Positions 7,085 through 59,307 of a stretch of DNA of 64,000 bases are shown one piece after another. Source of the DNA: Candidatus Moraniibacteriota bacterium (GTDB lineage Bacteria > Patescibacteriota > Minisyncoccia > Moranbacterales > GWC2-37-73). Positions within the stretch are counted from its first letter, which is position 1. Every line of letters begins with the position of its first letter. The stretch spans positions 142,132 to 206,131 of the forward strand of contig DNVR01000019.1 of NCBI GenBank assembly GCA_003507445.1, in the 5' to 3' direction. The notes under the pieces are model-generated. The model worked only from the letters and a program-made list of their open reading frames with translations, was not told the DNA's origin and searched no databases. Made by a program: the position numbers and the translations under genes.

Positions 7085-8521
7085 TTATTCTGCTCTACCT
7101 TCTAAGTTCCAAATATTGGCTTTAATAATCTTAACCTTCACAAATGTTCCGATTTGAATTTTTTTGTTAGAGACGATCTTTACATTTTTTTGCGTTCTGG
7201 TTTTCCCGAAACATATAAAACTCTTTCTTGACGCGTTGTCAGCAGCAGTTGATTTTACGCGTTCAATTAATACTTCAAAGGTTTTGCCGACATATTTTTT
7301 GTTATTTGCAAAGGCGGTTTTCTTGAGAATTTCATTGAGATAATTTTCTCGACGCGCCTTTTCTTTTTGAGAGACATTGTCTTTCATTTTCCATGCCACT
7401 GTTTCAGGTCGGGGAGAATATTGTCCAAAAAATACCATATCAAATTTCGATTTTTTCATTACCGCGGCCGACTCAAGAAATTGTTTTTTTGTTTCACCGG
7501 GAAAACCCACGATAATGTCGCTGGAAACACTAATCAACACCGATTTTCCACGGATTTTCACGAATGCTTTTCTTATTTTTTTGATTTGCTCTAAATAATG
7601 TTTTTGGGTATATTTTCGATTCATTCTTCGCAAAATTTCATCATCCCCGGCTTGCACTGGCAAATGAATCCATTCACAAACCTTTTTGCATCTTGCCACT
7701 GTTTCAATTAGTTCATCAGTCATATCCTTTGGATGCGAGGAAACAAAACTAATCCAGAATTTTCCCGGAATTGAATTTATTTTTTTTAACAATTTCGAAA
7801 AATTAATTTCTTTCTGAGTATTTTTTGTTGATAGTTGATAGTTGATAGTTGTGGGTGATTTATAGCTATTCACATTTTGTCCAAGTAGTGTGATGCTTTT
7901 GTATCCTTTTGCGACTAGGTCTTTAATCTCTTTGATTATTTCTTCGGCAGGACGAGAAACTTCGCGTCCTCGTGCATTTGGAACAACACAATAACTGCAG
8001 AAATTATTGCACCCAGTCATTATAGGGACATAAGCGGCATAATTGCTACTATATTTTGGATTAATAGAGAGATATGCGATGTTTTCTTTGTTGGTGATTT
8101 TATTTGGTGCCGCAATTTCCAATTTCCAATTTCCAATTTCCAAATAATTTTCAATGATCCAATTTTCAAATTCCCTAATATCTTTAACGGGGAAGAATAA
8201 ATCAACTTTTGATTTCATTCTTTTTTGAACATCGGCGCGGTTGGCGAGGCAACCAGTCATCACAATAACTTTTGACTTTGCATTTTCTTGTTTTGTTCCA
8301 TGCTCTATGTTCCATGTTTTATGCTTTTTGCGTAAGTTGTTAATCATACTGTACGCTCGATTTTCGGCAGTTTGTTTTATTCCACAAGTATTGAAAATTG
8401 TCAAATCAGCTTCTTTGATGTTATCAGTAACAGAAAAATTATGTTGCTCTAAAAAAGCAGCGATTCGCTCGCTGTCGCTAACATTCATCTGACAGCCAAA
8501 TGTTTTGATAAAATATTTCAT
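7085..8521 (-). CDS. miaB: tRNA-i6A37 methylthiotransferase (radical SAM, MiaB-like)
   Basis: MKYFIKTFGCQMNVSDSE MTTase N-terminus, CxxxCxxC radical-SAM region (GCNNFCSYC) and C-terminal TRAM domain. Adjacent to miaA. Carries several in-frame repeat inserts (EIGNWKLEI, TINYQLS, WNIEHGT). Confidence 0.85.
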   Translation of the reverse strand: MKYFIKTFGCQMNVSDSERIAAFLEQHNFSVTDNIKEADLTIFNTCGIKQTAENRAYSMINNLRKKHKTWNIEHGTKQENAKSKVIVMTGCLANRADVQKRMKSKVDLFFPVKDIREFENWIIENYLEIGNWKLEIAAPNKITNKENIAYLSINPKYSSNYAAYVPIMTGCNNFCSYCVVPNARGREVSRPAEEIIKEIKDLVAKGYKSITLLGQNVNSYKSPTTINYQLSTKNTQKEINFSKLLKKINSIPGKFWISFVSSHPKDMTDELIETVARCKKVCEWIHLPVQAGDDEILRRMNRKYTQKHYLEQIKKIRKAFVKIRGKSVLISVSSDIIVGFPGETKKQFLESAAVMKKSKFDMVFFGQYSPRPETVAWKMKDNVSQKEKARRENYLNEILKKTAFANNKKYVGKTFEVLIERVKSTAADNASRKSFICFGKTRTQKNVKIVSNKKIQIGTFVKVKIIKANIWNLEGRAE

Positions 8522-10675: not shown

Positions 10676-11126
10676 AAAAATAAAGTTAATGATTTATATA
10701 CTATTTTTAATTCCTAATTCCTAATTTCTAATATCTAATAAAATCTTAATTTCAAATGCCAAAATTTAGTCATTAAAAATTGGAAATTGTTTAGAAATTA
10801 GAAATTAGAAATTAGAAATTTTGATTCTAAATAAAAAAATACTCAAACAATACAGAAGAAACAATTAATGTTTCCGCATCGAGACTCTATCTGACGATAG
10901 GGTGGTTCCACTCGATTTCCCGTATTATTTGGGCACTTTGTGCGCTTATTCGCAAGCAGCTTAACCGGAAGCCTGTGCGCGGGTTGGTAAGCCGCAGCTC
11001 CATTTGATTGTATTTCAAGTATAGATAATTATTATAAAAAGTCAATATCTTTATTCTCCTGTTGCATTTTTTTGATAGTATGTTTGAATGATCGCAGTTG
11101 TTTAAAGTTATTTTGCAAGGGGCATT

Positions 11127-15796: not shown

Positions 15797-16334
15797 AAAT
15801 GAATTTGTGATTTAAAAACAGATCTAAATTTCTAATATCTAATTTCCAATATCTAATTAAATTCTAATTTCAAAGTTTTAAACATTAGACATTTGAAATT
15901 TATTGGGAATTAGAAATTAGGAATTAGAAATTAAAAAACCTCACTATAAATAGTGGGCTATAAAATACAGATATTAAAATGTTGAAATTTAATCTTGTTC
16001 ATATGTTTATGTTATCTTCATCTCCCAGGGACAAAGCCATTGGGTTTTGCAAGATATTTTAATAAATCTATGTTAGCATATTTTTTGAAAAAAGAAAACA
16101 TAGTAGTTTAGGACTTACGCTTTTTCTCAACAATTTCTTATTTGGCACGCTTTTGGATGAATACTCAATATCCAAAAGCTCAAAGAGTCGCTGTCGCCGA
16201 CTATTGTCCAAAAAAGAAATGTTTCGAAATGCGTAACTTTTGAAACAGTTCAAAACCTGAAAGTGGATAACTTTTCTTGTAAATATGGTATAATTTAACT
16301 ATTAAGATGGATATTTAAATAGTGGGGTTGTTTA

Positions 16335-19026: not shown

Positions 19027-19162
19027 TAAAATTTTTTAAATATCCAATTTCTAATTACCAATTTCTAATTAATTTCAAATTTCTCAATGTCTAAATTTTG
19101 ACATTAGGGTTTAAATTTTTTATTAGGAATTAGAAATTAGAAATTAGAAATTCTGAATTTCT

Positions 19163-19846
19163 ATGGTTGAATCTTTGGCTAAGAAAATTGGCATTAAATT
19201 TGATAATATTGAGTTGTTGCGTCAGGCAGTGACTCATCGCAGTTATTTGAATGAAAACAGGGATTATGCGCTTGACCACAATGAGCGTTTGGAATTTTTG
19301 GGTGATGCGGTTTTGGAACTTATTATTACTGAGCATTTGTACAATAATTATAAAAATCCAGAAGGGGAACTTACGAGTTGGCGCAGCGCGTTGGTAAATG
19401 GGGAAATGTTGGCAGTTGTTTCTCAAGAAATTGGTGTGGAAAAATATTTATTGATGAGTCGCGGAGAGGCAAAAGATAAGGGACGTGCTCGGCAATATTT
19501 GTTGGCCAATGCATTAGAGGCTATTATTGGCGCAGCATATCTTGATCAAGGTTATGATGTTACAAAAAAATTCGTGCTCAAAAATGTGGCCACAAAACTT
19601 AGTGAAATAATTGAGAAAAAACTATATCTTGATCCCAAGAGTTATTTTCAAGAGAAAGCACAGGAAAACAGTAAAGTAACACCATCATATCGGGTAATGA
19701 AAGAATGGGGACCTGATCATGATAAGCATTTTGTGGTGGGTGTGTATTTGGCAGATGAATTGGTTGCTGAAGGAGAAGGAAATTCAAAACAAGAAGCTCA
19801 GCGTGAAGCCGCCAGACTTGGGTTAGAAGCAAAAAGCTGGATCTAG
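19163..19846 (+). CDS. rnc: Ribonuclease III
   Basis: ERLEFLGDAVLELIITEHLY RNase III signature plus C-terminal dsRBD. Confidence 0.9.
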   Translation: MVESLAKKIGIKFDNIELLRQAVTHRSYLNENRDYALDHNERLEFLGDAVLELIITEHLYNNYKNPEGELTSWRSALVNGEMLAVVSQEIGVEKYLLMSRGEAKDKGRARQYLLANALEAIIGAAYLDQGYDVTKKFVLKNVATKLSEIIEKKLYLDPKSYFQEKAQENSKVTPSYRVMKEWGPDHDKHFVVGVYLADELVAEGEGNSKQEAQREAARLGLEAKSWI

Positions 19847-21670: not shown

Positions 21671-23068
21671 ATGGATCTATCTTATTTCAAGAACAAGAAA
21701 ATAACAGTGATGGGCATTGGGCTCCACGGTGGCGGAGTTGGCACGGTGAAATTTTTGGTTGCGCAAGGGGCAAAGGTAATCGCAACTGATTTGCGAACAA
21801 AAGAGCAGCTTAGTGCATCATTAGAAAAACTCAAGGGGCTTAAAAATGTGGAATATGTTTTGGGTCATCATCGGATGGAAGATTTTTCCAAAGTTGATAT
21901 GGTAATCAAAAACCCAGCTGCGAAGTGGTCAGATAAGCATATTAAATTTGCTCTTGAAAATAAAGTTCCGGTTGAAATGGATTCCAGTCTTTTTTTTAAG
22001 ATTTGCAAAAACAAAATAATTGGAGTAACTGGTACCAAGGGAAAAACTACTACTGCCACTCTTATATATGAAATTTTAAAAACAGTAGGAAAAAATCCGA
22101 TAAAAATTGGTATCGGACAAGTTTCAGTGTTGGATAAATTGCTGCTGCTAAAGAAAGATTCAGTGGTGGTTTTCGAACTTTCATCTTGGCGTCTTTCTGC
22201 GTTGGGTCGGGCAAAACTTAGCCCGCACATTGCCGTGTTTAAAAATATTATGCCGGATCATTTGAATTATTATGGAACGATGGAAAAATATTTTCAGGAT
22301 AAAAAATATATTTTCACAAATCAAAAACCCAAGGATTGGTTGGTTGTGAATAATGATGATGAACTTCTCAAGGAGGCAACTAAGGATGTTCCTGCGCAAG
22401 TTGTGCGTTTTTCATACGAGCCTCTTAAGCGTAGCCGAGCGGTGTTTATCGAAGACGAGGCAATATATCTCAACAATGGAATTGATGTTAAAAAACTTAC
22501 TGCAATTAAGGACGTGCTTATTCCAGGTAGGCATAATCTTTCTAATGTGATGGCTGCAATTGGAGCTGTCTATGCGTTGGGATTAAGTGCAATAGAAATC
22601 AAAAAGGCTCTGCCGCAATTGAAAGGCGTTGCTCATCGATTGGAATTTGTGCGCGAGCTTGGAGGCGTGAAATATTACAACGACACCGCGGCAACAATTC
22701 CAGATGCGGCTATTTCTGGTCTTAATGCTTTTGAAAAACCAATTGTTTTGATTGCGGGTGGAACGGATAAAAATTTAGACTTTACTGAGTTTGCAAAAGA
22801 AATTTTAGAAAAAGCAAAAGATATTATTTTATTGAAAGGTAATGCAACAGAAAAAATTCTTGAAAAACTTGGAAAAATTGCTAGTGAGGAATTTTTGCGC
22901 AATATTGAAATTGTCAGTTCGATGGAGGAGGCGACTGCGCTGGCTCAAAAAAAAGCCGAGCAAGGCGACGTTGTTTTGCTTTCACCAGGGGCTGCCAGCT
23001 TCGGACTTTTTGCCAATGAATTTGATCGCGGGGATAAATTTCGAGACGCGGTTAAAAAATTGAAGTAA
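21671..23068 (+). CDS. murD: UDP-N-acetylmuramoylalanine--D-glutamate ligase
   Basis: KKITVMGIGLHGGGVGTVKFL...GVTGTKGKTTT are the Mur ligase ATP-binding motifs. Confidence 0.85.
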   Translation: MDLSYFKNKKITVMGIGLHGGGVGTVKFLVAQGAKVIATDLRTKEQLSASLEKLKGLKNVEYVLGHHRMEDFSKVDMVIKNPAAKWSDKHIKFALENKVPVEMDSSLFFKICKNKIIGVTGTKGKTTTATLIYEILKTVGKNPIKIGIGQVSVLDKLLLLKKDSVVVFELSSWRLSALGRAKLSPHIAVFKNIMPDHLNYYGTMEKYFQDKKYIFTNQKPKDWLVVNNDDELLKEATKDVPAQVVRFSYEPLKRSRAVFIEDEAIYLNNGIDVKKLTAIKDVLIPGRHNLSNVMAAIGAVYALGLSAIEIKKALPQLKGVAHRLEFVRELGGVKYYNDTAATIPDAAISGLNAFEKPIVLIAGGTDKNLDFTEFAKEILEKAKDIILLKGNATEKILEKLGKIASEEFLRNIEIVSSMEEATALAQKKAEQGDVVLLSPGAASFGLFANEFDRGDKFRDAVKKLK

Positions 23069-23121
23069 AATTATTAAGCAAAAGAAGTGCAAAATAGATA
23101 GTGCTTAATTTATGGTTTTAG

Positions 23122-23255
23122 GTCTCAATAGATTGGTGCATTTTTGTTTTGCCTGCTTCCTTTCTCGGCACGCTTCGCAATCGAAGAACTATGATTGCTC
23201 GCTAAGAGTTCGCTGTCGCTCTCTGTTGCCTCGAAAGAAAACAGGCAAAACAAAA
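23122..23255. repeat. Invertible-element copy A: IR ttttgttttgcctg / caggcaaaacaaaa flanking a ~86-bp core
   Basis: Core sequence is the reverse complement of the core at 53381-53466, while the flanks (including 20 bp left of the IR) are co-oriented. Confidence 0.7.
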
Positions 23256-23405
23256 AACAAACCTTCATTTTCAAAATCATAGTTTGATTATGAGTCACAA
23301 AAGGACGCTTAGAATAGAGCGTCTTTTTACTTGAAAAAAAACCTGAGACCTGTATAATTAGTTTGTAGTTAAGTAGGACTTAATTTAGGCTTAAAATAGA
23401 CAAAT

Positions 23406-24671: not shown

Positions 24672-24801
24672 TTTTGTTTTCGCGTGTTAATCGTTCGCAT
24701 ACATTTTTATTTTTGTCACGGAGAAATAATTGCAACTTTTGACATAACGCAAATGTGACTTATTTCTAGTGAAAAAATAAAAAGTATGCTCACTCATATT
24801 T

Positions 24802-25253: not shown

Positions 25254-25580
25254 ATGGAAAAATTTTATAATGCGATTGCGGAATTTCATAAGAAAAATGA
25301 AATGAAGGGCACGAATAATGAGGATATGCAATTTCGTTTAAATTTGATGACGGAGGAATTAGGAGAATTGGCGCAGGCTGTGACGAAAGGAAAATCTAAA
25401 GAGGAGTTTTTGGAAGAGAATGTGGATCTGGTTGTTCTTATTTTGGGTAATTTGATTAGTACTGGAATTACGGTCGAAGAATTTGAGCAGGCGTTTTGGA
25501 AAAAGCATACAAAAATAATGAGCAGGGAAAAAAGAAAATTGGAAAACGGAAATTTTAGAGTGTCAGATTTTAAGGAGTAA
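25254..25580 (+). CDS. MazG-like nucleotide pyrophosphohydrolase (all-alpha NTP-PPase)
   Basis: LMTEELGELAQAV...EELVDLVVLIL EExxE-like MazG motif pattern. Length 108 aa. Confidence 0.5.
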   Translation: MEKFYNAIAEFHKKNEMKGTNNEDMQFRLNLMTEELGELAQAVTKGKSKEEFLEENVDLVVLILGNLISTGITVEEFEQAFWKKHTKIMSREKRKLENGNFRVSDFKE

Positions 25581-25584
25581 AGTG

Positions 25585-25677
25585 TTTGTCATTCTGAACT
25601 TGTTTCATAATCTACTTTCTTTGTATCAGTGAACTTTGAGATAATCGAGATCTTGAAATAAATTCAGGATGACAAAG
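25585..25677. mobile_element. MITE-like element, TIR tttgtcattctgaa / ttcaggatgacaaa
   Basis: 14-bp terminal inverted repeats with one mismatch. Same termini family as 33207, 50108 and 55370. Confidence 0.55.
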
Positions 25678-25742
25678 TTGTGTTTTGAAATTGAGTCATT
25701 GGAAATTGTTTAGAAATTAGTAATTAGAAATTTTTTATACTT

Positions 25743-26750
25743 ATGTTTATACGAAGAATTGGAATAGATTTAGGCACAGCAAACACCTTGGTTTTTATAC
25801 CTGGAAAAGGCATTGTGGTGAATGAGCCATCGGTGGTGGCAGTTTCTCCGATTGAAAATATTGTTTTAGCAGTGGGAAATCAAGCTCGCGAAATGCTTGG
25901 ACGCACACCGGACAACATTGTGGCATCTCGTCCAATGAAGGATGGCGTGATTGCAGATTATCGCGTGACGGAAGCAATGCTAAAATATTTTATTAATAAA
26001 GTGACTGGCAAAGTTCGCATTTTTAAACCTGAGATTATGATCTCAATTCCGGCAGGCGTAACCTCGACTGAACGTCGCGCCGTGATTGATGCGGCTGTGA
26101 AGGCTGGAGCAAAATCAGCGTATGTTGTGAAGGAGCCGCTCTTGGCTGCTATTGGTGCTGGAATTCCGATTCACAACGCCTCTGGTAATATGATTATTAA
26201 CATTGGTGGTGGTACATCTGAAATTGCGGTAATTTCGTTGGGCGGCGTTGTGGCAGCGCACAGTGCACGCGTGGGAGGCAATAAATTCGATCAAGCTATT
26301 TCTGATTATATCAAAAGAAAATATGGTTTGGCAGTTGGTGACAGAACAGCTGAGGATATTAAAAAAGAAATTGGATCTGCAATTGCGCAAGTTAAAGAAG
26401 AACATATGGAAGTGCGCGGACGCGACTTGATGGGTGGATTGCCAAAAACAATTAAAATTTCTTCCAATGAAGTAACCGAGGCTTTGCAAGATGAACTCAG
26501 AGAAGTGATTAATGCCATTAAAAAAGTTTTTCAAGAAACTCCTCCGGAACTGGCTGCTGATATTATGGACAAGGGGATGATCCTTTCGGGTGGTGGAGCG
26601 TTGCTTCGTAATCTTGATCAGTTGATCACGAAAACGATTGGTGTGCCGTGTTATGTGGCTGATGACCCATTGTTCTGTGTGATCAAAGGAATTGGAATCG
26701 CACTTGATAATCTTGAGGTTTATAAGAGGACAATTACTTTATCAAAATAG
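25743..26750 (+). CDS. mreB: Rod shape-determining protein MreB
   Basis: IGIDLGTANTLVF actin-fold phosphate-1 motif; 335 aa. Confidence 0.9.
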   Translation: MFIRRIGIDLGTANTLVFIPGKGIVVNEPSVVAVSPIENIVLAVGNQAREMLGRTPDNIVASRPMKDGVIADYRVTEAMLKYFINKVTGKVRIFKPEIMISIPAGVTSTERRAVIDAAVKAGAKSAYVVKEPLLAAIGAGIPIHNASGNMIINIGGGTSEIAVISLGGVVAAHSARVGGNKFDQAISDYIKRKYGLAVGDRTAEDIKKEIGSAIAQVKEEHMEVRGRDLMGGLPKTIKISSNEVTEALQDELREVINAIKKVFQETPPELAADIMDKGMILSGGGALLRNLDQLITKTIGVPCYVADDPLFCVIKGIGIALDNLEVYKRTITLSK

Positions 26751-26944: not shown

Positions 26945-28147
26945 ATGAAGATTGGAATTGATGCTTCCAGGGCTTTTATAAAAAACAGAACTGGTATTGA
27001 AGAATATTCATATCAAGTCATTGAAAACCTGCGTGATAAATTAAATAATCAGCAGGTTGTTTTATATGTTAAAAAAACTAACAACTTACAACTTACAACT
27101 TACGACGGAGTTGTTAAAATTAATGATTTGGAATTGCCAAAAAGTTGGCGAATAAAGGTCGTTAAATTTCCTAGATTTTGGACACAGCTGGGATTGTCTT
27201 GGGAAATGTTGCTGCGTCCCGTTGATGTCCTTTTTGTTCCTGCGCACACTGTGCCGATTATTCATCCTGAAAATACTGTGGTTGTGATTCACGGTTTGGA
27301 ATATGAATTTTGCCCAAAAGCATATTCTTCTTGGGAAAGAATGTATATGCGCGGAACAATTAAAAAATCTTGCGATTGGGCAAGCAGGATTATTTCTGTT
27401 TCTGAAAATACAAAGAAGGATTTGATGAATTTGTATAAAGTTGATGAGAAAAAAATATCTGTAATTTATGAAGGATATAGCCGCGAGGAGCGGAATTTCC
27501 AATTTCCAATTTCCAATTTCCAATCAAATCCAAATGATCAAATTTCAAAAATTAAAACATCAGAAATTCAATCGAAATTCGAAATTCGAAATTCGAAATT
27601 TCTTTTATTCATCGGTCGTATTGAGGAAAGAAAAAATATTTCCAACATTGTTAAGGCTTTTGAGCTTTTGAAAGAGAGATATAATATTCCGCACAAATTG
27701 GTACTAGCAGGAAAAGCAGGTTATGGCTACGATAATATTAAATTCGAAATTCGAAATTCGAAATTCGAAAATGATGTCGTGGAGCTGGGTTTTGTGAGTG
27801 AGGATGAAAAGTGGGAGCTTTTGAAAAAGGCGGATGTTTTTGTTTTCCCAACTCTGTATGAAGGATTTGGAATCCCAATTTTGGAAGCACAGAGTGTTGG
27901 TTGCTCCGTGGTGGCTTCAAATAATTCATCTATTCCCGAGGTAATCGGCGTAGAGACGCAAAATTTTGCGTCTCTACAGTTGGTTGACCCCCAAAATCCT
28001 CAAGACATCGCAGAAAGCATTTATAAGCTTATCTCGAACGAAAGCCTAAAAAATGCTATAATACAGAAAGGCTTGGAGAATGTGAAAAGGTTCAGTTGGG
28101 ACAAATGTGCACAGGAGATAGCTCAAATATTGTTAAAAAAGAATTAA
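26945..28147 (+). CDS. Glycosyltransferase family 4 (GT-B, RfaB-like)
   Basis: C-terminal GT1/GT4 motif (FVFPTLYEGFGIPILEAQSVGCSVVASN). Contains in-frame heptamer-repeat inserts (NFQFPISNFQ, FEIRNSKF x2). Confidence 0.75.
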   Translation: MKIGIDASRAFIKNRTGIEEYSYQVIENLRDKLNNQQVVLYVKKTNNLQLTTYDGVVKINDLELPKSWRIKVVKFPRFWTQLGLSWEMLLRPVDVLFVPAHTVPIIHPENTVVVIHGLEYEFCPKAYSSWERMYMRGTIKKSCDWASRIISVSENTKKDLMNLYKVDEKKISVIYEGYSREERNFQFPISNFQSNPNDQISKIKTSEIQSKFEIRNSKFLLFIGRIEERKNISNIVKAFELLKERYNIPHKLVLAGKAGYGYDNIKFEIRNSKFENDVVELGFVSEDEKWELLKKADVFVFPTLYEGFGIPILEAQSVGCSVVASNNSSIPEVIGVETQNFASLQLVDPQNPQDIAESIYKLISNESLKNAIIQKGLENVKRFSWDKCAQEIAQILLKKN

Positions 28148-33206: not shown

Positions 33207-33328
33207 TTGTCATTCCTGCGTAGGCAGGAATCTAGGATTATGAAATGTGTTTATTAAATTATATTTATCAATAATAGAAATATTGTGTACTAAATCCTGG
33301 ATTCCGGGTCAAGCCCGGAATGACAAAT
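33207..33328. mobile_element. MITE-like element with hairpin-containing TIRs (ttgtcattcc-TGCGTAGGCA-ggaatctagg ... cctggattcc-GGGTCAAGCC-cggaatgacaa)
   Basis: Terminal inverted repeats each contain an internal stem-loop. Same architecture as 55370-55488. Confidence 0.6.
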
Positions 33329-48594: not shown

Positions 48595-49719
48595 ATGTCA
48601 TCAATTTTTGTCGCGATTATTATAATAGGAATCTTGGCCGCTCTTTTGTGGCTTGTTTTTGATTTAAAAATGAAGGTTGTGGCGAGTAGTGATAACAAAG
48701 AAGAGAGAGAAAAGATGACGGCAATTTTGGAGCGCCTTCGGAATTTGAGCGAACAAAATCATCAAATGCGCACCGAAATAGACACAAAATTAACCGAAGC
48801 GCGGCGTTCTTCGAGTGAGCATATGCGCGACACAATTGAGACAGTCAAGGGGATTACGGGTCAATCAGCCAAGCTTATTAGCAATGTAACTGAAAAGCTG
48901 ACTAAGCTTGATGAAACAAATAGGCAAGTGGTTAATTTTTCGGCGCAACTTCAAAATTTGCAGGATATTTTGAAAAACCCAAAACAACGTGGAGTGCTGG
49001 GGGAATATTTTCTAGAAGAAACACTCAAAAACGTGCTGGGACCAAAGTCATATCAAATGCAATATAAATTGGGCAAGAGTGAAAAAACCGATCAAGATTT
49101 GATCGTTGATGCGGTTGTTTTTGTGAAAGACAAAATTGTTCCAATTGATTCAAAGTTTTCACTTGAGAATTATGAAAGAATCTTGAATTGCACTGATAGT
49201 GCAGAGCGTGAAAAATTTGAAAAATTGTTCAAACAGGATTTGAAAAATCGTATTGATGAAACTGCCAAATATATTCGTCCTGAAATGGGAACAATGGATT
49301 TTGCTTTTATGTTTATTCCTTCCGAAGCAATTTATTATGATTTGCTTGTAAACAAGGTTGGTGCAGCTCAAATTAACACGCGCGACTTGATTGAATATGC
49401 TTTTCAGGAAAAGAAAGTCATCATCGTTTCCCCGACATCATTTCTGGCATATTTGCAAACAGTGCTTCAAGGTCTCCGAGCTTTTCAAATTGAGGAAAAT
49501 GCCAAAGAGATTCGCGCCAATGTGGAAAAACTTGGAAAACATATTATTGCATATGAAGACTATTTGAAAAAATTGGGAAATAATCTCGGAACCACAGTAA
49601 ACAGTTTTAACACTGCATATAAAGAGCTTGGAAAAATAGATAAGGATGTCGCGAAAATAACTGAAGGAGAAAAAACAATTGAGCCTCTGGCTTTAGAAAA
49701 ACCACATGAACTTTTTTAA
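48595..49719 (+). CDS. rmuC: DNA recombination protein RmuC
   Basis: N-terminal TM, coiled coil, then QRGVLGEYFLEETLKNVL matching the RmuC xRGxWGExxLE motif. Confidence 0.7.
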   Translation: MSSIFVAIIIIGILAALLWLVFDLKMKVVASSDNKEEREKMTAILERLRNLSEQNHQMRTEIDTKLTEARRSSSEHMRDTIETVKGITGQSAKLISNVTEKLTKLDETNRQVVNFSAQLQNLQDILKNPKQRGVLGEYFLEETLKNVLGPKSYQMQYKLGKSEKTDQDLIVDAVVFVKDKIVPIDSKFSLENYERILNCTDSAEREKFEKLFKQDLKNRIDETAKYIRPEMGTMDFAFMFIPSEAIYYDLLVNKVGAAQINTRDLIEYAFQEKKVIIVSPTSFLAYLQTVLQGLRAFQIEENAKEIRANVEKLGKHIIAYEDYLKKLGNNLGTTVNSFNTAYKELGKIDKDVAKITEGEKTIEPLALEKPHELF

Positions 49720-50101: not shown

Positions 50102-50107
50102 TAATTA

Positions 50108-50165
50108 TTTGTCATCCTGAACTTGTTTCAGGATCTAGATTCCGGATCAAGTCCGGAATGACACA
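50108..50165. mobile_element. MITE-like element (compact copy): tttgtcatcctgaa...ggatcaagtcc ggaatgaca
   Basis: Shares the left terminus with 25585 and the hairpin/right terminus with 33207/55370 elements. Confidence 0.5.
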
Positions 50166-51865: not shown

Positions 51866-53320
51866 ATGGACTATTCTCTTTATTTAATGCCGATGTTTTC
51901 TTCTTTGCTGATTTCAGTATCGCTGCTTATTTTATTGATTTCATTTGGCCAAAAATATTCAAATGATGATGGTAGGACTTCCAATAGACATATTCATAAA
52001 AAAGGAATTTTGCGTTTTGGTGGGATAGCTTTAATTTTATCCTTTTTGTTTGCAATCTTGTTGGACAAAAATCTTGTCATAGGCGCGCCCTTGCTTGGCG
52101 TGCTTTTTGGTTCTTTGCTAATTTTGGTTTTGGGTGTTATTGATGATTTCAAGCAAATAGTATGGAAAAAACAACTTTTCTTTCAATTTTTGATTGTGAT
52201 TTTTGTGTATATTATGGGTGTGCATCTCGAATATGTGACAAATCCTTTTGGTGGAGTGCTGATGCTTGATGCTGATTGGGGATACGTATTTGGTTTTTTG
52301 ATTTCCACTGTATGGATTATCTTTCTTATGAATGCAATGAATTGGATTGATGGCATTGATGGTGTGGTTGGGGGTGTTGGACTCATTGGAATAATAGCGA
52401 TTTTCTTTTTAAGTTTACGGCCGGAAGTTAATCAGCCTCCTATCGGAATTATTGCGGCTGCTTTTGCAGGCAGTCTTGTTGCATTTTTGTTTTTTAATTT
52501 TTATCCCGCAAAAATTTTAGCCGGGAGTAGCGGCTCGATGTTTATAGGTTTTATTTTGGCGGTTCTGGCGATTTTCGCTGGAGCAAAAATCGCAACCACC
52601 TTGCTTGTGCTGGCCGTGCCCATTATCGATGCGCTCTGGGTTATTGGTGAGCGCTTCAAAGCAGGAGTTTCAATTTTTTCGGGAGATAGAAGACATCTGC
52701 ATTTTAGGCTGCTGGAGCTTGGTTGGTCGCAAAGAAGCATTTGTCTTTTTTATTACACAATAACGGCGTTAGTTGCATTTATAGCACTTAACACGCAAGC
52801 TTTGGAAAAAATGATTGCACTTTTTCTCGTCACGATCGTTGTGCTTGTGTTTTTCGTGATTATTCGCAGAAAAATGGAAATTAAAAAAATAGTGTTATTG
52901 ATTTCGGCGCTTGTTATTTTTGTGTTTGCGATTGGTTATGTGTCAAAAAGGGTATATTCTTTTGCTGGCAATCGAATTGTTGCTGCTAATATTAAAAATA
53001 ATATTTTTTATGCCGAAGTTGTTTCCAGTAGTCAGAAAATGCAAAAAGGACTGGGCGGTAGAGTTGGTATTTGCGAGAATTGTGGTATGCTCTTTGAATT
53101 TCAAAAATCTTCGCAACATGCATTTTGGATGAAAGATATGAAATTTCCTTTGGATATCTTGTGGATTTTGAAAAATGAAATTGTTTATATTGAAAAAAAC
53201 ATCAAACCAGATTTGGTTGGCATTCTTATGCCAAATAGCGATGCAGATAAGGTTTTGGAGCTTAACGCCGGCACGGTGGACGGTCTTGGCATTGAGATTG
53301 GGGACACGGTTACCTTTTAG
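51866..53320 (+). CDS. WecA/MraY-family polyprenyl-phosphate N-acetylhexosamine-1-P transferase fused to C-terminal DUF192-like domain
   Basis: RFGGIALILSF...LVLGVIDDFKQI is the GT4 MraY/WecA signature with Asp-Asp motif; about 10 TM. C-terminal FPLDILWILKNEIVYIEKN...NAGTVDGLGIEIGDTV resembles DUF192. Confidence 0.6.
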   Translation: MDYSLYLMPMFSSLLISVSLLILLISFGQKYSNDDGRTSNRHIHKKGILRFGGIALILSFLFAILLDKNLVIGAPLLGVLFGSLLILVLGVIDDFKQIVWKKQLFFQFLIVIFVYIMGVHLEYVTNPFGGVLMLDADWGYVFGFLISTVWIIFLMNAMNWIDGIDGVVGGVGLIGIIAIFFLSLRPEVNQPPIGIIAAAFAGSLVAFLFFNFYPAKILAGSSGSMFIGFILAVLAIFAGAKIATTLLVLAVPIIDALWVIGERFKAGVSIFSGDRRHLHFRLLELGWSQRSICLFYYTITALVAFIALNTQALEKMIALFLVTIVVLVFFVIIRRKMEIKKIVLLISALVIFVFAIGYVSKRVYSFAGNRIVAANIKNNIFYAEVVSSSQKMQKGLGGRVGICENCGMLFEFQKSSQHAFWMKDMKFPLDILWILKNEIVYIEKNIKPDLVGILMPNSDADKVLELNAGTVDGLGIEIGDTVTF

Positions 53321-53346
53321 CTGCTAAACACAATTTATGCTTCTAA

Positions 53347-53480
53347 GTCTCAATAGATTGGTGCATTTTTGTTTTGCCTGTTTTCTTTTGAGGCAACAGA
53401 GAGCGACAGCGAACTCTTAGCGAGCAATCATAGTTCTTCGATTGCGAAGCGTGCCGAGAAGGGAAGCAGGCAAAACAAAA
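53347..53480. repeat. Invertible-element copy B (same flanks as 23122-23255, core inverted)
   Basis: Identical 33-bp left flank+IR and 14-bp right IR. Core equals the reverse complement of copy A core with 2 mismatches. Confidence 0.7.
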
Positions 53481-53546
53481 GCTCCTTTTTTTGAGCTATA
53501 ACTTTAGTGTGGTTTTTTTTGGGAAAACAAGAAAAATAGGCAACAT

Positions 53547-53572
53547 AAAACCCCGCTTTTGCGGGGTTTTAT
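53547..53572. terminator. Bidirectional terminator aaaaccccgcttttgcggggtttt
   Basis: Perfect stem ccccgc/gcgggg with A/T runs, between convergent genes. Confidence 0.6.
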
Positions 53573-53637
53573 GTTTTTAACTTCTTTTCCGGAAAAGAAC
53601 AGTTTTGTGAAACAAATATTTTCTTAAATTTTTTCAC

Positions 53638-54246
53638 TTAGAGTGAAGAAACTCGAGCTGAATATTTTTGAAGATTTTTCAACTGGTTTTCATTAAGTGT
53701 CTTGGATGCAGCAATTGCTTTTTGGATCAAATCTTTTGAAAATTCTACATTTGTTCCAACGCGAACGCCACCTTTATGTCCAACAGCTTTTCTTAGGTAA
53801 TCTTCGATGTAGATCTTGTGTTCTTTTGTCAAAGTTGAATCCTGGTTTTTTTCGAGATAATTCGCAGTTGCTCTACGAGCAAGAACAGTCAATCCGTCAC
53901 CTCTACCTGCAGTTTCAACGAATGAAACCTCGGTTTCTTTGCTTGTTTGAGCAGGAGAAACAGCTGGTTTGGTGTCTTTGTTTTCTGTTACTTTTGCTTC
54001 TTCTGTTTTGTCAGCAACTTTTTCTTCGTCAGTGGTTGCGTCGCTTTCTTCAGTTGCTTGCTGCTGATCAGCTACGATAGGAGAATCTGTTCTTTTTGAA
54101 TATGAATAAATTCCTCCGGCAATGATAATAACGATTGCAACACTGATGATAATGCGAAGATTATCTTGAAACCATCTTTTTAGTTGTTCAGACTTCTCTT
54201 CTTGGGTTTCTGTTTCTGGTGTGTATTCTTCCATATGTGATTTCAC
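53638..54246 (-). CDS. Hypothetical membrane-anchored protein
   Basis: SD aaggaaggtga upstream. Single TM (IIISVAIVIIIAGGIYSY), acidic Thr/Glu-rich linker, conserved-looking C-terminal domain. Confidence 0.45.
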   Translation of the reverse strand: MKSHMEEYTPETETQEEKSEQLKRWFQDNLRIIISVAIVIIIAGGIYSYSKRTDSPIVADQQQATEESDATTDEEKVADKTEEAKVTENKDTKPAVSPAQTSKETEVSFVETAGRGDGLTVLARRATANYLEKNQDSTLTKEHKIYIEDYLRKAVGHKGGVRVGTNVEFSKDLIQKAIAASKTLNENQLKNLQKYSARVSSL

Positions 54247-54299
54247 CTTCCTTTCTAGTTTAATCCCGCGTCCAGTGAGGATGCGGGAATTGAATGATT

Positions 54300-55080
54300 A
54301 ATTGTCAAAGGGCGCTTTCGTTGAAGCTTTATCCGCCTCTGGCGATTTCAATCGCTTTAGGAGACAAATTCTTCCTTTAGTCTTTTCATTGTATCTTAGC
54401 CAAATTTGAGCGTCAACTAGACAAAAAGCCTGTTTTTTGGCGTAATAAAGCATAAAACATATAGCGTACAACATGCAACAAACAACAAACAACATTGTAA
54501 CCCCAGTTAAATATTGTGGAGTACCACAATTTAACAGGATAAATATATAACAAAAAATAATATAAATTGATGTAAAATTATTGGTTTATAATTTATAACA
54601 AAGTTTAAATAAAATATTTTTTTATAAAAATATGAGAGATTGAAAAATACAAAAAGTTAAAAAATAATTTTTTCAAAAAAAAGTCTGCGTAGAAAATATT
54701 TTTTAGAAATTTTATTTCAAGATAGATGTATAAATATAATGTGAGATAAGATAGTGGATATGGTGTTAAAATGTTTTTTAAAATTTAAAAGTTAAAATTT
54801 AAAATTTTGTGATGCTGTGGATAACTTTTTTGCATTGCTTTTTAAAAAATATCCACTATAATTAAGGTAATGGAAAAAAGATTTTTTGAAAATATTTTTT
54901 CTGTGAAATAAAAACATTAAAAGCAAAAATTAAAAATTAAAAATATTTGTTTTCTGAAAAAGTATTTAGAACTTTAGACTTTGGCCCGCACCTTTTCTGA
55001 TGATTGCAATTGAAATCAAAAGAGATGGTGCGGGACAAACGAGTCTTGCTAGATATTCGTATAAGAGCAAATTTACGAAA
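54300..55080. promoter_or_regulatory. AT-rich ORF-free region with clustered DnaA-box matches (candidate oriC or DnaA-regulated region)
   Basis: TGTGGATAA at 54816-54824 (9/9 to reverse complement of TTATCCACA), TAGTGGATA at 54752-54760, TATCCACTA at 54850-54858, weaker TTATCCGCC at 54328. Long A/T tracts 54540-54720. Confidence 0.4.
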
Positions 55081-55094
55081 GGAGGTGTTTTACC

Positions 55095-55265
55095 ATGGCA
55101 GTTAAAAAAGCAAAAAAGAAAGTTGCAAAAAAAGTAGTTAAAAAAGTTGCAAAGAAAGCTGTAAAAAAAGCAGTTAAAACTGTAAAAAAAGCAGTTAAAA
55201 AAGCAGCTCCAAAAAAAGCTGTAAAGAAAGTTGCAAAAAGAAAAGTAGCAAAGAAACGAAAATAG
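55095..55265 (+). CDS. Lysine/alanine-rich histone-like small basic protein (Hc1/H1-like KKAVKK repeats), 56 aa
   Basis: Strong SD aaaggaggtg 7 nt upstream of ATG; terminator downstream. Not in ORF track (<60 aa). The antisense ORF 55073..55303 is an artefact. Confidence 0.6.
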   Translation: MAVKKAKKKVAKKVVKKVAKKAVKKAVKTVKKAVKKAAPKKAVKKVAKRKVAKKRK

Positions 55266-55327
55266 TTTTCTTTTGATACATGTTTTTTATTTTTTGGCTT
55301 CATTGAAAGCCTAAATATATCAACAAA

Positions 55328-55358
55328 CTAAAACCCGCCAATTTGGCGGGTTTTAGTT
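55328..55358 (+). terminator. Rho-independent terminator aaaacccgccaatttggcgggtttt
   Basis: Stem cccgcc/ggcggg + T-run. Confidence 0.6.
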
Positions 55359-55369
55359 TTGAGGAAAAG

Positions 55370-55488
55370 TTGTCATTCCGGACTTGATCCGGAATTCAGG
55401 ATTAGCACGTTAAACTTTAAATAATATTTTTCTCAATTTTAAATCCGTAGTTCAAATCCTGGATTCCCGCCTACGCGGGAATGATAAT
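55370..55488. mobile_element. MITE-like element (ttgtcattcc-GGACTTGATCC-ggaattcagg ... cctggattcc-CGCCTACGCG-ggaatgataa)
   Basis: Same architecture as 33207-33328; internal hairpin stems differ by compensatory changes. Confidence 0.6.
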
Positions 55489-55495
55489 GAATTTT

Positions 55496-56386
55496 TTATT
55501 TAATTTCTATTTTACACACTCTCCATTTACCAGCTAAGTCTTTTTTGAATTCTGGCTTGGTTTTTGGGAAAATGCTTTTGATAAGTTTTGCGAGTGGTTG
55601 TTTTTGCTCGGGACTGATCTCTAAAAAACATGTGACATGTGACAATTGACAATTGGCAAGAAAATCCTGGAGTTGTTCTAATAATTTGCGGTAATGTTGC
55701 AGTCCGGCTTCTGGACTGTAAAGTGCAGATTTTGGTTCGAATTTTTTGACATCAATTGGAGCTGAAGAATAAATTTCTTTTGAGAGATAGGGAAGATTAG
55801 CCACGATTACTATCGTGGAATTTCCAATTTCCAATTTCCAATTTCCAATAAATGGTTCAAGTAAACTTCCGTGGAGGAATTTGATTTTTTTATCAACGCC
55901 ATTCGCGGCAGCATTTTTCTTGGCAATGGTTAATGCTTCCTTGCTGATGTCGATTCCAAAGTATTCAACTTTGTCATTCCCGCGGAGGCGGGAATCCAGG
56001 TTTGCGATGGAGATAATAATATTTCCAGATCCTGTCCCAATGTCAACAATTCCTAAATTGGAAATTGGAAATTGGAAATTGGAAATTTCGTTGAGCACCA
56101 GCTCAACGAGTAGTTCCGTTTCTGGTCTTGGGACGAGAGTGTGTTTATTTACGATAAAATCCAATCCATAAAATTCCTTATGACCAAGGATGTAGGCGAT
56201 AGGCTCTCCTTTGAGGCGACGATTAATTTGAAATTTGAAATTTGAAATTTGAAATTTTGTTAATTTATATTCTGGATATGTTAAAACAAACTCCCTTGTT
56301 TTACCAAGAGAGTTTGCTATTAGGATTTCTAAATCCAAATAGTCTAGTTTATTTGTATATTTTTGGATAATTTCTGAAATTGTCAT
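55496..56386 (-). CDS. prmC: Release factor glutamine N5-methyltransferase PrmC/HemK
   Basis: VDIGTGSGNIIISIA SAM motif I and VANLPY (NPPY-like) motif IV. Adjacent to prfA. Carries several in-frame inserts derived from heptamer repeats and a MITE half-site (LDSRLRGNDK). Confidence 0.8.
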   Translation of the reverse strand: MTISEIIQKYTNKLDYLDLEILIANSLGKTREFVLTYPEYKLTKFQISNFKFQINRRLKGEPIAYILGHKEFYGLDFIVNKHTLVPRPETELLVELVLNEISNFQFPISNLGIVDIGTGSGNIIISIANLDSRLRGNDKVEYFGIDISKEALTIAKKNAAANGVDKKIKFLHGSLLEPFIGNWKLEIGNSTIVIVANLPYLSKEIYSSAPIDVKKFEPKSALYSPEAGLQHYRKLLEQLQDFLANCQLSHVTCFLEISPEQKQPLAKLIKSIFPKTKPEFKKDLAGKWRVCKIEIK

Positions 56387-56418
56387 TTTGAAATTGAGAT
56401 TTTATTAGACATTAGAAA

Positions 56419-57492
56419 TTAGGAATTAGACATTTTTAACCTCGTGTCTTCTTCTCGGATAGCTTCAATAATAGGGTCGATGTTTCCATCCAAAATTCCT
56501 TCCATATTGCTCCAAGATTGTTTGATGCGATGGTCAGTAATGCGATCTTGTGGATAATTGTAAGTTCTGATTTTTTCAGAGCGGTCGCCGGTTCCAACTT
56601 GGCTTTTGCGAGCATCTCCCAATTCTTTGGCCTTTCTTTCTTCTTCGGCTTGCAAAAGACGAGAGCGCAAAACTTTCATAGCCTTGTCTTTGTTTTTGAG
56701 TTGTGATTTTTCATCTTGGCAGGAAACAACCACGCCAGTTGGAATATGCGTAATACGCACGGCACTTTTGGTTGTGTTTACTGATTGTCCTCCAGGACCG
56801 GATGAACAAAAAGTGTCGATTCGCAAATCGTTTTCACTGATAACCAAATCAACCTCTTCAGCTTCAGCGAGAACAGCCACGGTTGCAGTTGAAGTATGGA
56901 TTCGTCCTTGTTTCTCTGTTTCAGGAATTCTTTGCACTCGATGCACTCCAGATTCGAATTTCATTTTTTGATAAACTGGATTTGTTGGGGTTCCGCTAAT
57001 TTCGAAAACAACTTCCTTGAAGCCTCCTAATTCTGTGCGATTTGAATTTAACACATCCAGCTTCCAATTGTTTTTCTCGGCAAATTTGGAATACATACGA
57101 AAAAGGCTGGCAGCAAAAAGAGCAGATTCATCTCCGCCTGCACCACCACGAATTTCCACAATAATGTTTTTGTCATCATTTGGATCTTTTGGCAAAAGCA
57201 TTATTTCAAGTTCTTTTTCAATCTCAGCTTTTCTTTTTGCTAATTCAATGTTTTCAGTTGTTGCCATTTCTTTCATTTCTGCGTCGTCGTCGGTGTTCAT
57301 AATTTCAGCATTGCCTTTCATTTCTTGCTCAATTTTTTCATATTCATTGATTTTCTGCATCAATCCTTGAAGTTCACTTTGGCGTTTGCCAAGCTGTGCC
57401 ATTTTTTTTGCATCATTAAAAATCTCCGGAGAACTTAGCTCGGCCGTGATTTCGTTATATTCCTTTTTAATTGCATCTAATTGTGATTTCAT
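56419..57492 (-). CDS. prfA: Peptide chain release factor 1
   Basis: [23 protein letters not shown] motif and the PxT-type RF1 decoding region. Confidence 0.92.
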
Positions 57493-59175: not shown

Positions 59176-59307
59176 TATTTCATAATTACTAATTACCAAT
59201 TACTAATTTCTAACAAAAACAAAAATAAAAAATGTCTAATTGTTTGAAATTTGACATTGAAAATTTTATTAGATATTAGAAATTAGATATTAGAAATTTT
59301 TAAACCT

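Follow-up and report, generated by a model that had tools for sequence, protein, structure and literature searches.

The locus

The DNA considered here, called the window, is a stretch of 64,000 nucleotides (nt) from a Candidatus Moraniibacteriota bacterium. A gene of the WecA/MraY-DUF192 type (wecA-DUF192) ends at position 53320, and a convergent gene occupies 53638-54246. Between the two lies a hairpin resembling an intrinsic terminator (53542-53575), and between this hairpin and the wecA-DUF192 stop codon is a quasi-palindromic repeat, element B, which is the subject of this work. A second copy, element A, is found between murD and murA. Both copies are placed in the same way, that is, between the stop codon of the upstream gene and the terminator-like hairpin of that gene. 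At locus A, the murD stop is at 23068 and the hairpin at ~23303-23327, and these are followed by an 11/12 promoter match for murA. We conclude, with a probability of roughly 0.55, that element B is a structured element resembling a miniature inverted-repeat transposable element (MITE), the tip of which was flipped by rare recombination between the arms of its stem, and that it is not a programmed switch.

The window is matched by contig DOKX01000004.1 of GCA_003510165.1, and the best named relatives of its proteins are in metagenome-assembled genomes of Moranbacteria and Parcubacteria.

Two copies with opposite cores

In a repeat scan of the window, the top inverted pair is formed by 23142-23256 and 53366-53480, which are 98% complementary over 115 nt. 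To the left of these arms the two copies match in direct orientation instead: the flanks 23107-23170 and 53332-53395 are 88% alike, as seen in the repeat scan and in alignments made both ways. This direct match includes 49 nt at ~94%, of which 34 consecutive bases are identical (23122-23155 = 53347-53380). Beyond it, A and B align only as reverse complements, with 2 mismatches, and their right-hand arms are ~50% alike. The 21-mer GTCTCAATAGATTGGTGCATT occurs within the window in the two copies only, with 0.00 occurrences expected from shuffled sequences. A perfect 14-bp inverted repeat, TTTTGTTTTGCCTG / CAGGCAAAACAAAA, is present at 53367-53380 / 53467-53480 in element B and at 23142-23155 / 23242-23255 in element A. 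It encloses 86 nt and extends imperfectly to 29 nt.

A sequence-only reading made previously had described copy B as the partner of copy A, carrying the core reversed behind the same left flank, and this is borne out by the alignments and shuffles. The distances it gave are also right, as the wecA-DUF192 stop (TAG, 53318-53320) lies 27 nt before 53347 and the terminator-like hairpin begins 61 nt past 53480. The limits of 53347-53480 that it set for the element are too narrow. Comparison with 13 further distinct copies reveals outer inverted arms, and these place element B at ~53316-53515 and element A at ~23086-23312. The "left flank" is one of the arms of the element itself, namely the Y arm described below.

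Anatomy of the element

The elements are 200-225 bp in length and non-coding, with the overlapping open reading frames (ORFs) being spurious and none of them common to the copies. The general plan comprises outer inverted ends (~GGGTCAYACGCAATWYATGGTT), a linker arm on each side that is of the X or the Y type, an inner stem of 24-29 bp and an apex of 56 nt. The X-type linker reads ..AAAAAAAATAAAGATTTAT.. or ..AAAAAGTAAGAGTTTGC.. and the Y-type linker reads ..TAAGTCTCAATAGATTGGTGCATT. The outer ends form a perfect repeat of 28 bp in the copy at locus L017 (loci elsewhere are given by such handles) and are degenerate in both window copies. Automatic local alignment of left and right arms is too noisy in this AT-rich DNA, and the ends of the elements were read by eye. 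The terminal inverted repeats that define a MITE are present in these copies, and so are the small size and the lack of coding capacity. The coordinates of all parts are collected in Table 1.

Structure and conservation

The 143-nt region that contains the hairpin folds to -55.5 kcal/mol on the minus strand of element A and to -57.4 kcal/mol on the plus strand of element B, versus -43.3 (A) and -39.2 kcal/mol (B) on the opposite strands. This asymmetry arises because the mismatches between the arms become G·U pairs and tandem G·A on one strand, which is referred to as the strong strand. A structural alignment of 13 distinct copies shows the same preference, with 96.5% of cells paired, 3 stem pairs changed on both sides and 24 G·U cells at 7 stem positions compared to 2 A·C cells at 1 position.

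In these aligned copies the apex is near-invariant (53/56 columns identical). It has a closing helix GGCA/UGCC, a first hairpin with the loop GCGACAG, and a second hairpin with the stem GCAAUC/GAUUGC and the loop AUAGUUCUUC. Covariance-model scores are 104-109 bits for the strong strand versus 14-22 bits for the opposite strand; for the hairpin of element A, the values are 109 bits on the minus strand and 21.9 bits on the plus strand. Across subfamilies, 10/24 consensus pairs stay paired through double changes. The apex stems covary in the diverged relatives at L029, L030 and L031 and in a second family of elements (family 2, below), as shown by hairpin 2, which is GCAGUC/GACUGC in L030, GCAAUU/AAUUGU in L029 and UUUUGGAU/AUCCAAAA in family 2. 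The three diverged copies are the best source of covariation for this hairpin.

The inverted repeat itself carries compensatory substitutions in other copies, for example TTTTGCTTTG../..CAAAGCAAAA, which argues for selection on pairing and not on a recombinase site or a protein-binding sequence. In addition, the orthologous copies at L008 and L013 are identical at 39/56 and 54/65 positions of the arms, at 112/114 of the inner hairpin and at 56/56 of the apex, and the adjacent coding DNA is 90% identical. The structure is under selection on one strand, either as RNA or as single-stranded DNA.

Distribution of the family

A genome scan for the pattern of inverted repeat and gap found the element in Candidatus Moranbacteria GW2011_GWE2_36_40 (L006) and in Parcubacteria GW2011_GWC1_36_108 (L008), and a metagenome scan with a 21-mer from the core gave 15 loci. 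Not counting A and B, the two scans together yield 12 distinct copies. A further match to the pattern, in Oscillospiraceae (L007), was rejected as chance, with an unrelated interior. Exactly 3 sequences of the window match the covariance model, two of family 1, to which A and B belong, and one of family 2; in 134 kb of loci there are 17 matches.

The search for a known counterpart was negative. At the gathering threshold, Rfam 15 gives 3 tRNAs in the window and nothing else, and when both element types are searched at E-values up to 10, the output is noise-level microRNA matches and no family. None of the 6S, SRP or ribozyme families falls on the element in the Rfam E-value scan. Individual candidates were rejected as well: the junction strands (2/2/1 nt), read by eye, do not suit the core of a hammerhead; the GNRA-loop motif of SRP was not seen by eye in the element; and for tRNA/tmRNA, the scan results are unrelated to it. 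There is no match to the element in the phage and plasmid collections or the viral contigs. Neither a transposase nor any other protein is found repeatedly next to the copies; all-versus-all BLASTP of the ORFs at the loci gives syntenic housekeeping genes only. This is a low-copy, intergenic, quasi-palindromic family of ~200-225 bp in groundwater Patescibacteria (Moranbacteria / Parcubacteria), and it is previously undescribed.

A probable insertion at the end of wecA-DUF192

The closest available relative has a different arrangement at locus B. Here, a sister lineage (L024 and L025, in which WecA is 92% identical) shares the gene order and the terminator of the window but has no family-1 element, so that element B looks like an insertion. 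The spacer after wecA-DUF192 measures 317 nt in the window but only 112 nt in the sister lineage, where the hairpin at 53542-53575 is kept. The encoded proteins end differently, with ..GDSIAFEKMRKS in the sister, which is 6 residues longer, versus ..GDTVTF in the window, and thus the stop codon of the window gene is supplied by the left end of element B. Presence and absence at orthologous sites, a further property of MITEs, is observed at locus B and at a family-2 site.

Imperfect, AT-rich direct repeats of 6-8 bp flank most copies, although chance matches come easily in such DNA. These are AAAATTA at L008, ATATTTT at L023, GGATTTTG at L014, A[A/G]TTAGA at L016, TAAAAC at L021 and TTTTG at element A; there is none at L010.

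Locus A was considered for a clean empty site and rejected. L029-L031 have a gene for a CAP-domain protein between murD and murA, and in L032 the upstream genes differ, which makes this locus uninformative on insertion. The CAP-domain protein is 262-290 residues long, and at the corresponding place the window (23069-23405) has element A and lacks a CAP gene. In L032 (1792-2857), which is a related strain from the same sample, the murD-element region is replaced by two adjacent ORFs with an RVT_1 domain upstream of murA. These may be a split reverse transcriptase of a group II intron or retron.

Orientation of the core

Two arrangements of the element are found. In the A-type, the Y arm is 3' of the core, as in element A, L008/L013, L014 and L015. 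In the B-type, it is 5' of the core, as in element B and L006. Y-type arms with the sequence ..AGATTGGTG.. are located 3' of the hairpin at 5 other loci and 5' of it at L006. The copy at L017 has X-type arms on both sides, and a copy with two Y arms was not seen among the copies. When the plus strand of element A is compared with the minus strand of L006, both arms align directly (Y at ~77%, X with 16-17 identical bases) and the 114 nt between them are inverted. Therefore, the segment that the inverted repeat bounds has been physically flipped in this family. As the asymmetric mismatches of the stem travel with the core, the breakpoints lie inside the perfect 14-bp repeat.

Within a locus the orientation does not vary between assemblies. 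The window orientation is found in 4 full assemblies at locus B, one of which (L001) may be the source record of the window itself, and in 2 full assemblies and 1 partial contig at locus A. Orientation is also uniform at L006, L008 and L017, which have been assembled repeatedly. Two Logan contigs end inside the element, where A and B cease being identical. Contig ends of this kind were rejected as evidence of heterogeneity, as the breaks coincide with the limits of A/B identity as they would for any repeat. An inversion of the 30 kb of chromosome between A and B was likewise rejected, for a single crossover cannot yield the B-type and the flanks are unchanged in every assembly.

The ~50 ORFs of the window that were scanned against Pfam, drawn from 64 kb of the genome, include no recombinase of the tyrosine or serine type, no transposase and no HUH enzyme. 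The promoter or terminator that the sequence-only reading considered as a possible content of the core does not appear, with no sigma-70-like promoter or intrinsic-terminator consensus inside either core, and such consensus sequences may not fit this phylum. What is present of an inverton is the segment bounded by inverted repeats; both orientations at one locus, an associated recombinase and an internal promoter or terminator are not observed. The term "invertible element", used in the sequence-only reading, is apt for a real rearrangement, both forms of which exist in other species, but an active switch is not supported, given the uniform assemblies, the lack of a recombinase among the ORFs scanned and the compensatory changes in the inverted repeat. 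Judging from the assemblies, each locus is fixed in orientation, and the "inversion" is real but evolutionary.

Gene context and the orientation rule

Both window copies would be transcribed as part of a 3' untranslated region (3' UTR), in which case the wecA transcript carries the strong hairpin and the murD transcript carries its weak complement. In 9/10 informative loci, the strong strand runs with its 3' end toward the stop codon of a convergent gene on the opposite strand, and in 6/6 tandem-gene contexts it is antisense. For this rule the binomial p is about 0.02-0.03, from ~10 loci. A rule tied to the replication strand, as might apply to single-stranded DNA, is argued against, since A and B have opposite strong strands in one replichore. 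GC skew is positive over essentially the whole window; the exception is a 4-kb block at 12-16 kb, which is slightly negative and does not fall between A and B.

It had been proposed that the orientation of the core, if it carries a promoter or terminator, could gate read-through into the convergent gene. An effect of orientation on read-through has a measure of indirect support, as the two strands fold differently and orientation is non-random with respect to the neighbors. Toggling is not supported, and neither core holds a terminator consensus.

Two nearby genes are relevant to the fate of hairpins. An RNase III gene (19163-19846) lies ~3 kb upstream of element A, and a gene of the RmuC family (48595-49719) lies two genes upstream of wecA-DUF192. 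In Escherichia coli, RmuC is implicated in keeping inversions at short inverted repeats in check. The proximity of both genes is probably coincidental.

Proposed mechanism and alternatives

In the mechanism that we favor, a non-autonomous, MITE-like element would have inserted at the very end of wecA-DUF192, giving that gene its stop codon. The flip is most likely due to rare intramolecular recombination between the arms of the stem, or to template switching between them (a hairpin flip); a dedicated invertase is an unlikely cause. Some exchange of arms between copies may have taken place alongside the flips. The element would be transcribed within the 3' untranslated or intergenic region of its neighbor, and in the strong orientation it would form a very stable RNA hairpin, recognizable by protein, which could act as a barrier or a processing site. 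Tolerance of such a hairpin may be limited to sites at which the following gene is convergent or at which no co-directional gene follows. If this is correct, the orientation of the core matters for read-through without being toggled.

Several observations weigh against this mechanism. A and B share only the left arm, and a single flip of a duplicated element does not explain the pair, which needs arm exchange as well or different master elements. An autonomous transposon with matching ends was not found, the flanking direct repeats are imperfect and transposition is unproven. The "empty" site of the sister lineage is not clean and holds a 23-nt end piece of family 2. Copies are kept at orthologous loci, namely downstream of murA (L029/L030/L031), downstream of the phosphohexomutase gene glmM (L020/L021) and at L008/L013, and this retention, together with the near-invariant apex, fits a host-useful RNA better than a selfish repeat. 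The barrier function draws on ~10 loci, there is no terminator consensus and family 2 does not follow an orientation rule. Finally, assemblies are consensus sequences, and a minority orientation may remain in the reads.

In one alternative, the element is a small non-coding RNA gene, or a paralogous family of such genes, with its own promoter for the strong strand, always in convergent position, with the arms as its closing stem and the A/B difference as a swap of bulge strands. The near-invariant apex constrained in place, the strand-specific structure, the low copy number, the copies kept at orthologous loci in several species and the convergent orientation are all as expected of such a gene. 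Nevertheless, we regard it as doubtful. Neither A nor B has a promoter-like site upstream of its strong strand, the inner hairpin is not directly followed by a U-tract, and the swapped arms would change any functional internal loop. The closest relative lacks the element at locus B and differs in the presence of family 2 at another site, and the terminal inverted ends, flanking direct repeats and insertion into the end of a coding sequence also count against it. Alternatively, no physical inversion took place and the B-type arose by modular exchange, in the manner of mosaic repeats, through gene conversion of linker arms with the outer ends and the inner-stem repeat serving as homology. The left arms of A and B with their 34-nt perfect stretch, beside right arms that are ~50% alike, and the X-type arms on both sides at L017 suit this explanation, and as the core is invariant across species, its 98% identity says nothing on recency. 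It is improbable nonetheless, as element A and L006, having the same arms and opposite cores, need one flip but two arm conversions, and no Y/Y copy was seen.

If the flip were instead programmed, a recombinase encoded elsewhere would invert the 86-nt core and toggle the hairpin in the 3' UTR of the neighbor, making the element a phase-variable inverton. In one genome the segment does occur both ways behind a shared flank, comparison across species shows it both ways between a shared pair of arms, its two orientations differ greatly in RNA stability, and the search for a recombinase covered only 64 kb of the genome. Against this, orientation is uniform in all assemblies of loci A, B, L006, L008 and L017, the contig breaks are accounted for by the repeat, no recombinase is found in the window or near other copies and the inverted repeat evolves by compensatory change. 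A distance of 86 bp between recombination sites is also very short for synapsis, and we consider a programmed inverton quite improbable. Slightly less credence still is given to a mobile cassette in which an undescribed structured RNA, a three-way junction on a long stem, can be actively reoriented through recombination between the arms of the stem. If that were true, populations could toggle between a strong RNA barrier and its weak complement in the 3' UTR of envelope genes (murD/murA, wecA), which would amount to phase variation by RNA structure in a bacterium of the candidate phyla radiation without a classical promoter inverton. The hairpin might also be recognized on one strand of DNA during replication, as in single-stranded DNA elements (REP/RAYT, IS200/IS605-PATE) or integron attC-like sites. 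Here, the G·T and tandem G·A mismatches of the strand-specific hairpin are tolerated in DNA too and the conserved apex could be the recognition site of a protein. However, the strong strand is not tied to the replication strand, inverted ends are present, neither a cassette array nor a GTTRRRY core site was read in the sequence, and no HUH or Y1 transposase is among the window ORFs or recurring neighbors. The REP/RAYT, IS200/IS605 and attC families are not known to have terminal inverted ends or flanking direct repeats, and a single-stranded DNA element is very hard to credit. The MITE-like element with an evolutionarily flipped tip is thus the explanation that we retain.

Relation to known systems

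The working mode of the family comes closest to that of the Correia/ERIC class, palindromic repeats that resemble MITEs. BIMEs are mosaics of interchangeable modules, and ERIC is an imperfect palindrome with two transcript orientations that differ in stability. The elements described here resemble both in having interchangeable modules and a palindrome with strand-dependent stability. The Correia elements of Neisseria (CREE/NEMIS) are transcribed into hairpins that are bound or cut by RNase III, with context-dependent effects on neighbors (PMC2649163). Like those, the present elements are short, transposon-like and intergenic, with inverted ends and a conserved core, and lie near the ends of genes. 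They differ in that the sequence is unrelated and the phylum is another, conservation is lowest at the ends and highest in the 56-nt apex, the flanking repeats are 6-8 bp instead of TA, copies are few per genome and not in the hundreds, and the apex is found in both orientations relative to the arms. With prokaryotic MITEs as defined previously (PMC11602168, PMC10969869), they share small size, lack of coding capacity, terminal inverted repeats, short (here imperfect) direct repeats that flank most copies, an intergenic location and a presence that varies between close lineages. Unlike MITEs, ERIC and BIMEs, the interior is constrained in place, copies are kept at orthologous loci and there is no known parent transposon.

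Invertible promoter switches (fimS, hin, and the invertons of Bacteroides and Clostridioides) likewise contain a segment that is enclosed by short inverted repeats and exists both ways round. In contrast to these, no recombinase was found in the window or recurring beside other copies, loci are uniform in assemblies, there is no promoter consensus in the cores, the repeat covaries instead of being conserved and the segment is only 86 bp. Minute inversions associated with hairpins in plastid non-coding DNA have reportedly been described by Kelchner and Wendel in 1996 and by Kim and Lee in 2005. The flipping of plastid hairpin loops between the arms of their stem, which does not depend on a recombinase, is the closest precedent. 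There too, the apex of a stem-loop is flipped without a dedicated enzyme, recurrently over evolution, and is fixed per lineage. The difference is that the element described here is a bacterial mobile element, in which the flipped part is a conserved, strand-specific module and not a neutral loop. Both plastid papers (pmid 8753656 and pmid 15750347, respectively) appear in the reference list of PMC7393888.

The family is new, and its unusual traits are a near-invariant, strand-specific apex and the occurrence of that apex in both orientations. Patescibacterial genomes are tiny and contain little non-coding DNA, and descriptions of mobile or regulatory RNA elements from this phylum are few. Here, the behavior of a mobile repeat is joined with the conservation pattern of a functional RNA, and orientation is non-random with respect to the neighbors. 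The family thereby provides a concrete candidate for a new structured RNA motif, complete with a covariance model, and a natural test of the effect of hairpin orientation on read-through in Patescibacteria. More generally, an inverted core between identical flanks can come from a hairpin flip in palindromic repeats and need not mean a phase-variable switch.

Table 1. Parts of elements A and B, related elements and other repeats (window coordinates unless a locus is named)
Feature	Position	Strand	Description
Whole element B	53316..53515	+	B-type: Y arm, hairpin in strong orientation, X-type arm; ends approximate; from comparison of copies and the sister lineage
wecA-DUF192 stop codon	53318-53320		Left edge of element B
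Outer left arm CTGCTAAACACAATTTATGCTTCTAA	53321..53346	+	Degenerate terminal inverted repeat; aligns with consensus GGGTCAYACGCAATWYATGGTT and with the reverse complement of 53494-53512
Y linker arm GTCTCAATAGATTGGTGCAT	53347..53366	+	Identical to 23122-23141
Inner-stem 5' arm	53367..53395	+	Perfect 14-nt inverted repeat TTTTGTTTTGCCTG and imperfect extension TTTTCTTTTGAGGCA
56-nt apex	53396..53451	+	Three-way junction with hairpin 1 and hairpin 2
Inner-stem 3' arm	53452..53480	+	TGCCGAGAAGGGAAG and perfect inverted repeat CAGGCAAAACAAAA
X-type linker (reverse complement) and outer right arm GAGCTATAACTTTAGTGTGG	53481..53515	+	Followed by a run of eight T (T8)
Bidirectional intrinsic-terminator-like hairpin	53542..53575	.	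Common to wecA-DUF192 and the convergent gene 53638-54246; outside element B
Whole element A	23086..23312	-	A-type; strong hairpin strand is minus
Site of element A	Between murD stop (23068) and murD terminator-like hairpin (~23303-23327)		Sequence identical in L027 and L028
114-nt hairpin of element A, bounded by the inverted repeat	23142..23255	-	Reverse complement of 53367-53480, 2 mismatches
Family-2 element	16106..16245	-	Same architecture; motifs GCGACAGCGA..CUCUU and AAGCGUGCC; second hairpin and arms differ; covariance model 86.7 bits
Diverged family copies	L029 3797-3891, L030 3788-3882, L031 3789-3892	all -	Downstream of murA, antisense to flanking genes
Tandem heptamer sites	8111-8170, 10704-10831, 15824-15947, 19036-19174, 25660-25747, 27491-27608, 55816-56095, 56227-56442, 59181-59306		
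Short palindromic repeat sites	33293-33326, 55370-55403, 55455-55487, 55971-56003; also 25580-25676, 50103-50142		

Family 2 and diverged relatives

Besides the family-2 element of the window, profile and covariance-model searches find family-2 copies at L008 (6571-6708) and L024 (485-624), as well as the diverged copies of L029, L030 and L031, which come from three related species. All these relatives preserve the architecture and the motifs GCGACAGCGA and AAGCGUGCC. In L024, a full copy is located between a gene for a 201-residue protein and rmuC, and there is none at the same site of the window. The last six codons of wecA-DUF192 in the sister lineage (EKMRKS*; L024 5451-5475) are the 23-nt terminal piece of family 2 mentioned above, which indicates that the two element families have used one site and that repeat ends supply coding sequence and stops. 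The window does not have a copy downstream of murA (24672-24801) as L029-L031 do. At L015 (10986-11033), a partial family-2 piece, TTTGGATATTGAGCATTCATCCAAAAGCGTGCCAAAAAAAG, directly follows the family-1 element, which suggests nested or adjacent insertions.

Other repeats in the window

Many intergenic regions of the window contain tandem heptamers (AATTTCC, TTAGAAA, TTCGAAA and TTGGAAA, in 3-4 copies each), often as inverted pairs around a gap or a gene. Two more families of short palindromes form REP-like intergenic hairpins, one resembling AATCCTGGATTCC(N)GGGAATGACAA and the other resembling TTTGTCATCCTGAACTTGTTTCAGGATC. In the gap from 54246 to 55496, a lysine/alanine-rich tandem repeat with units resembling AAAAAAGCAGTTAAAAAAGTTGC spans 55104-55256.

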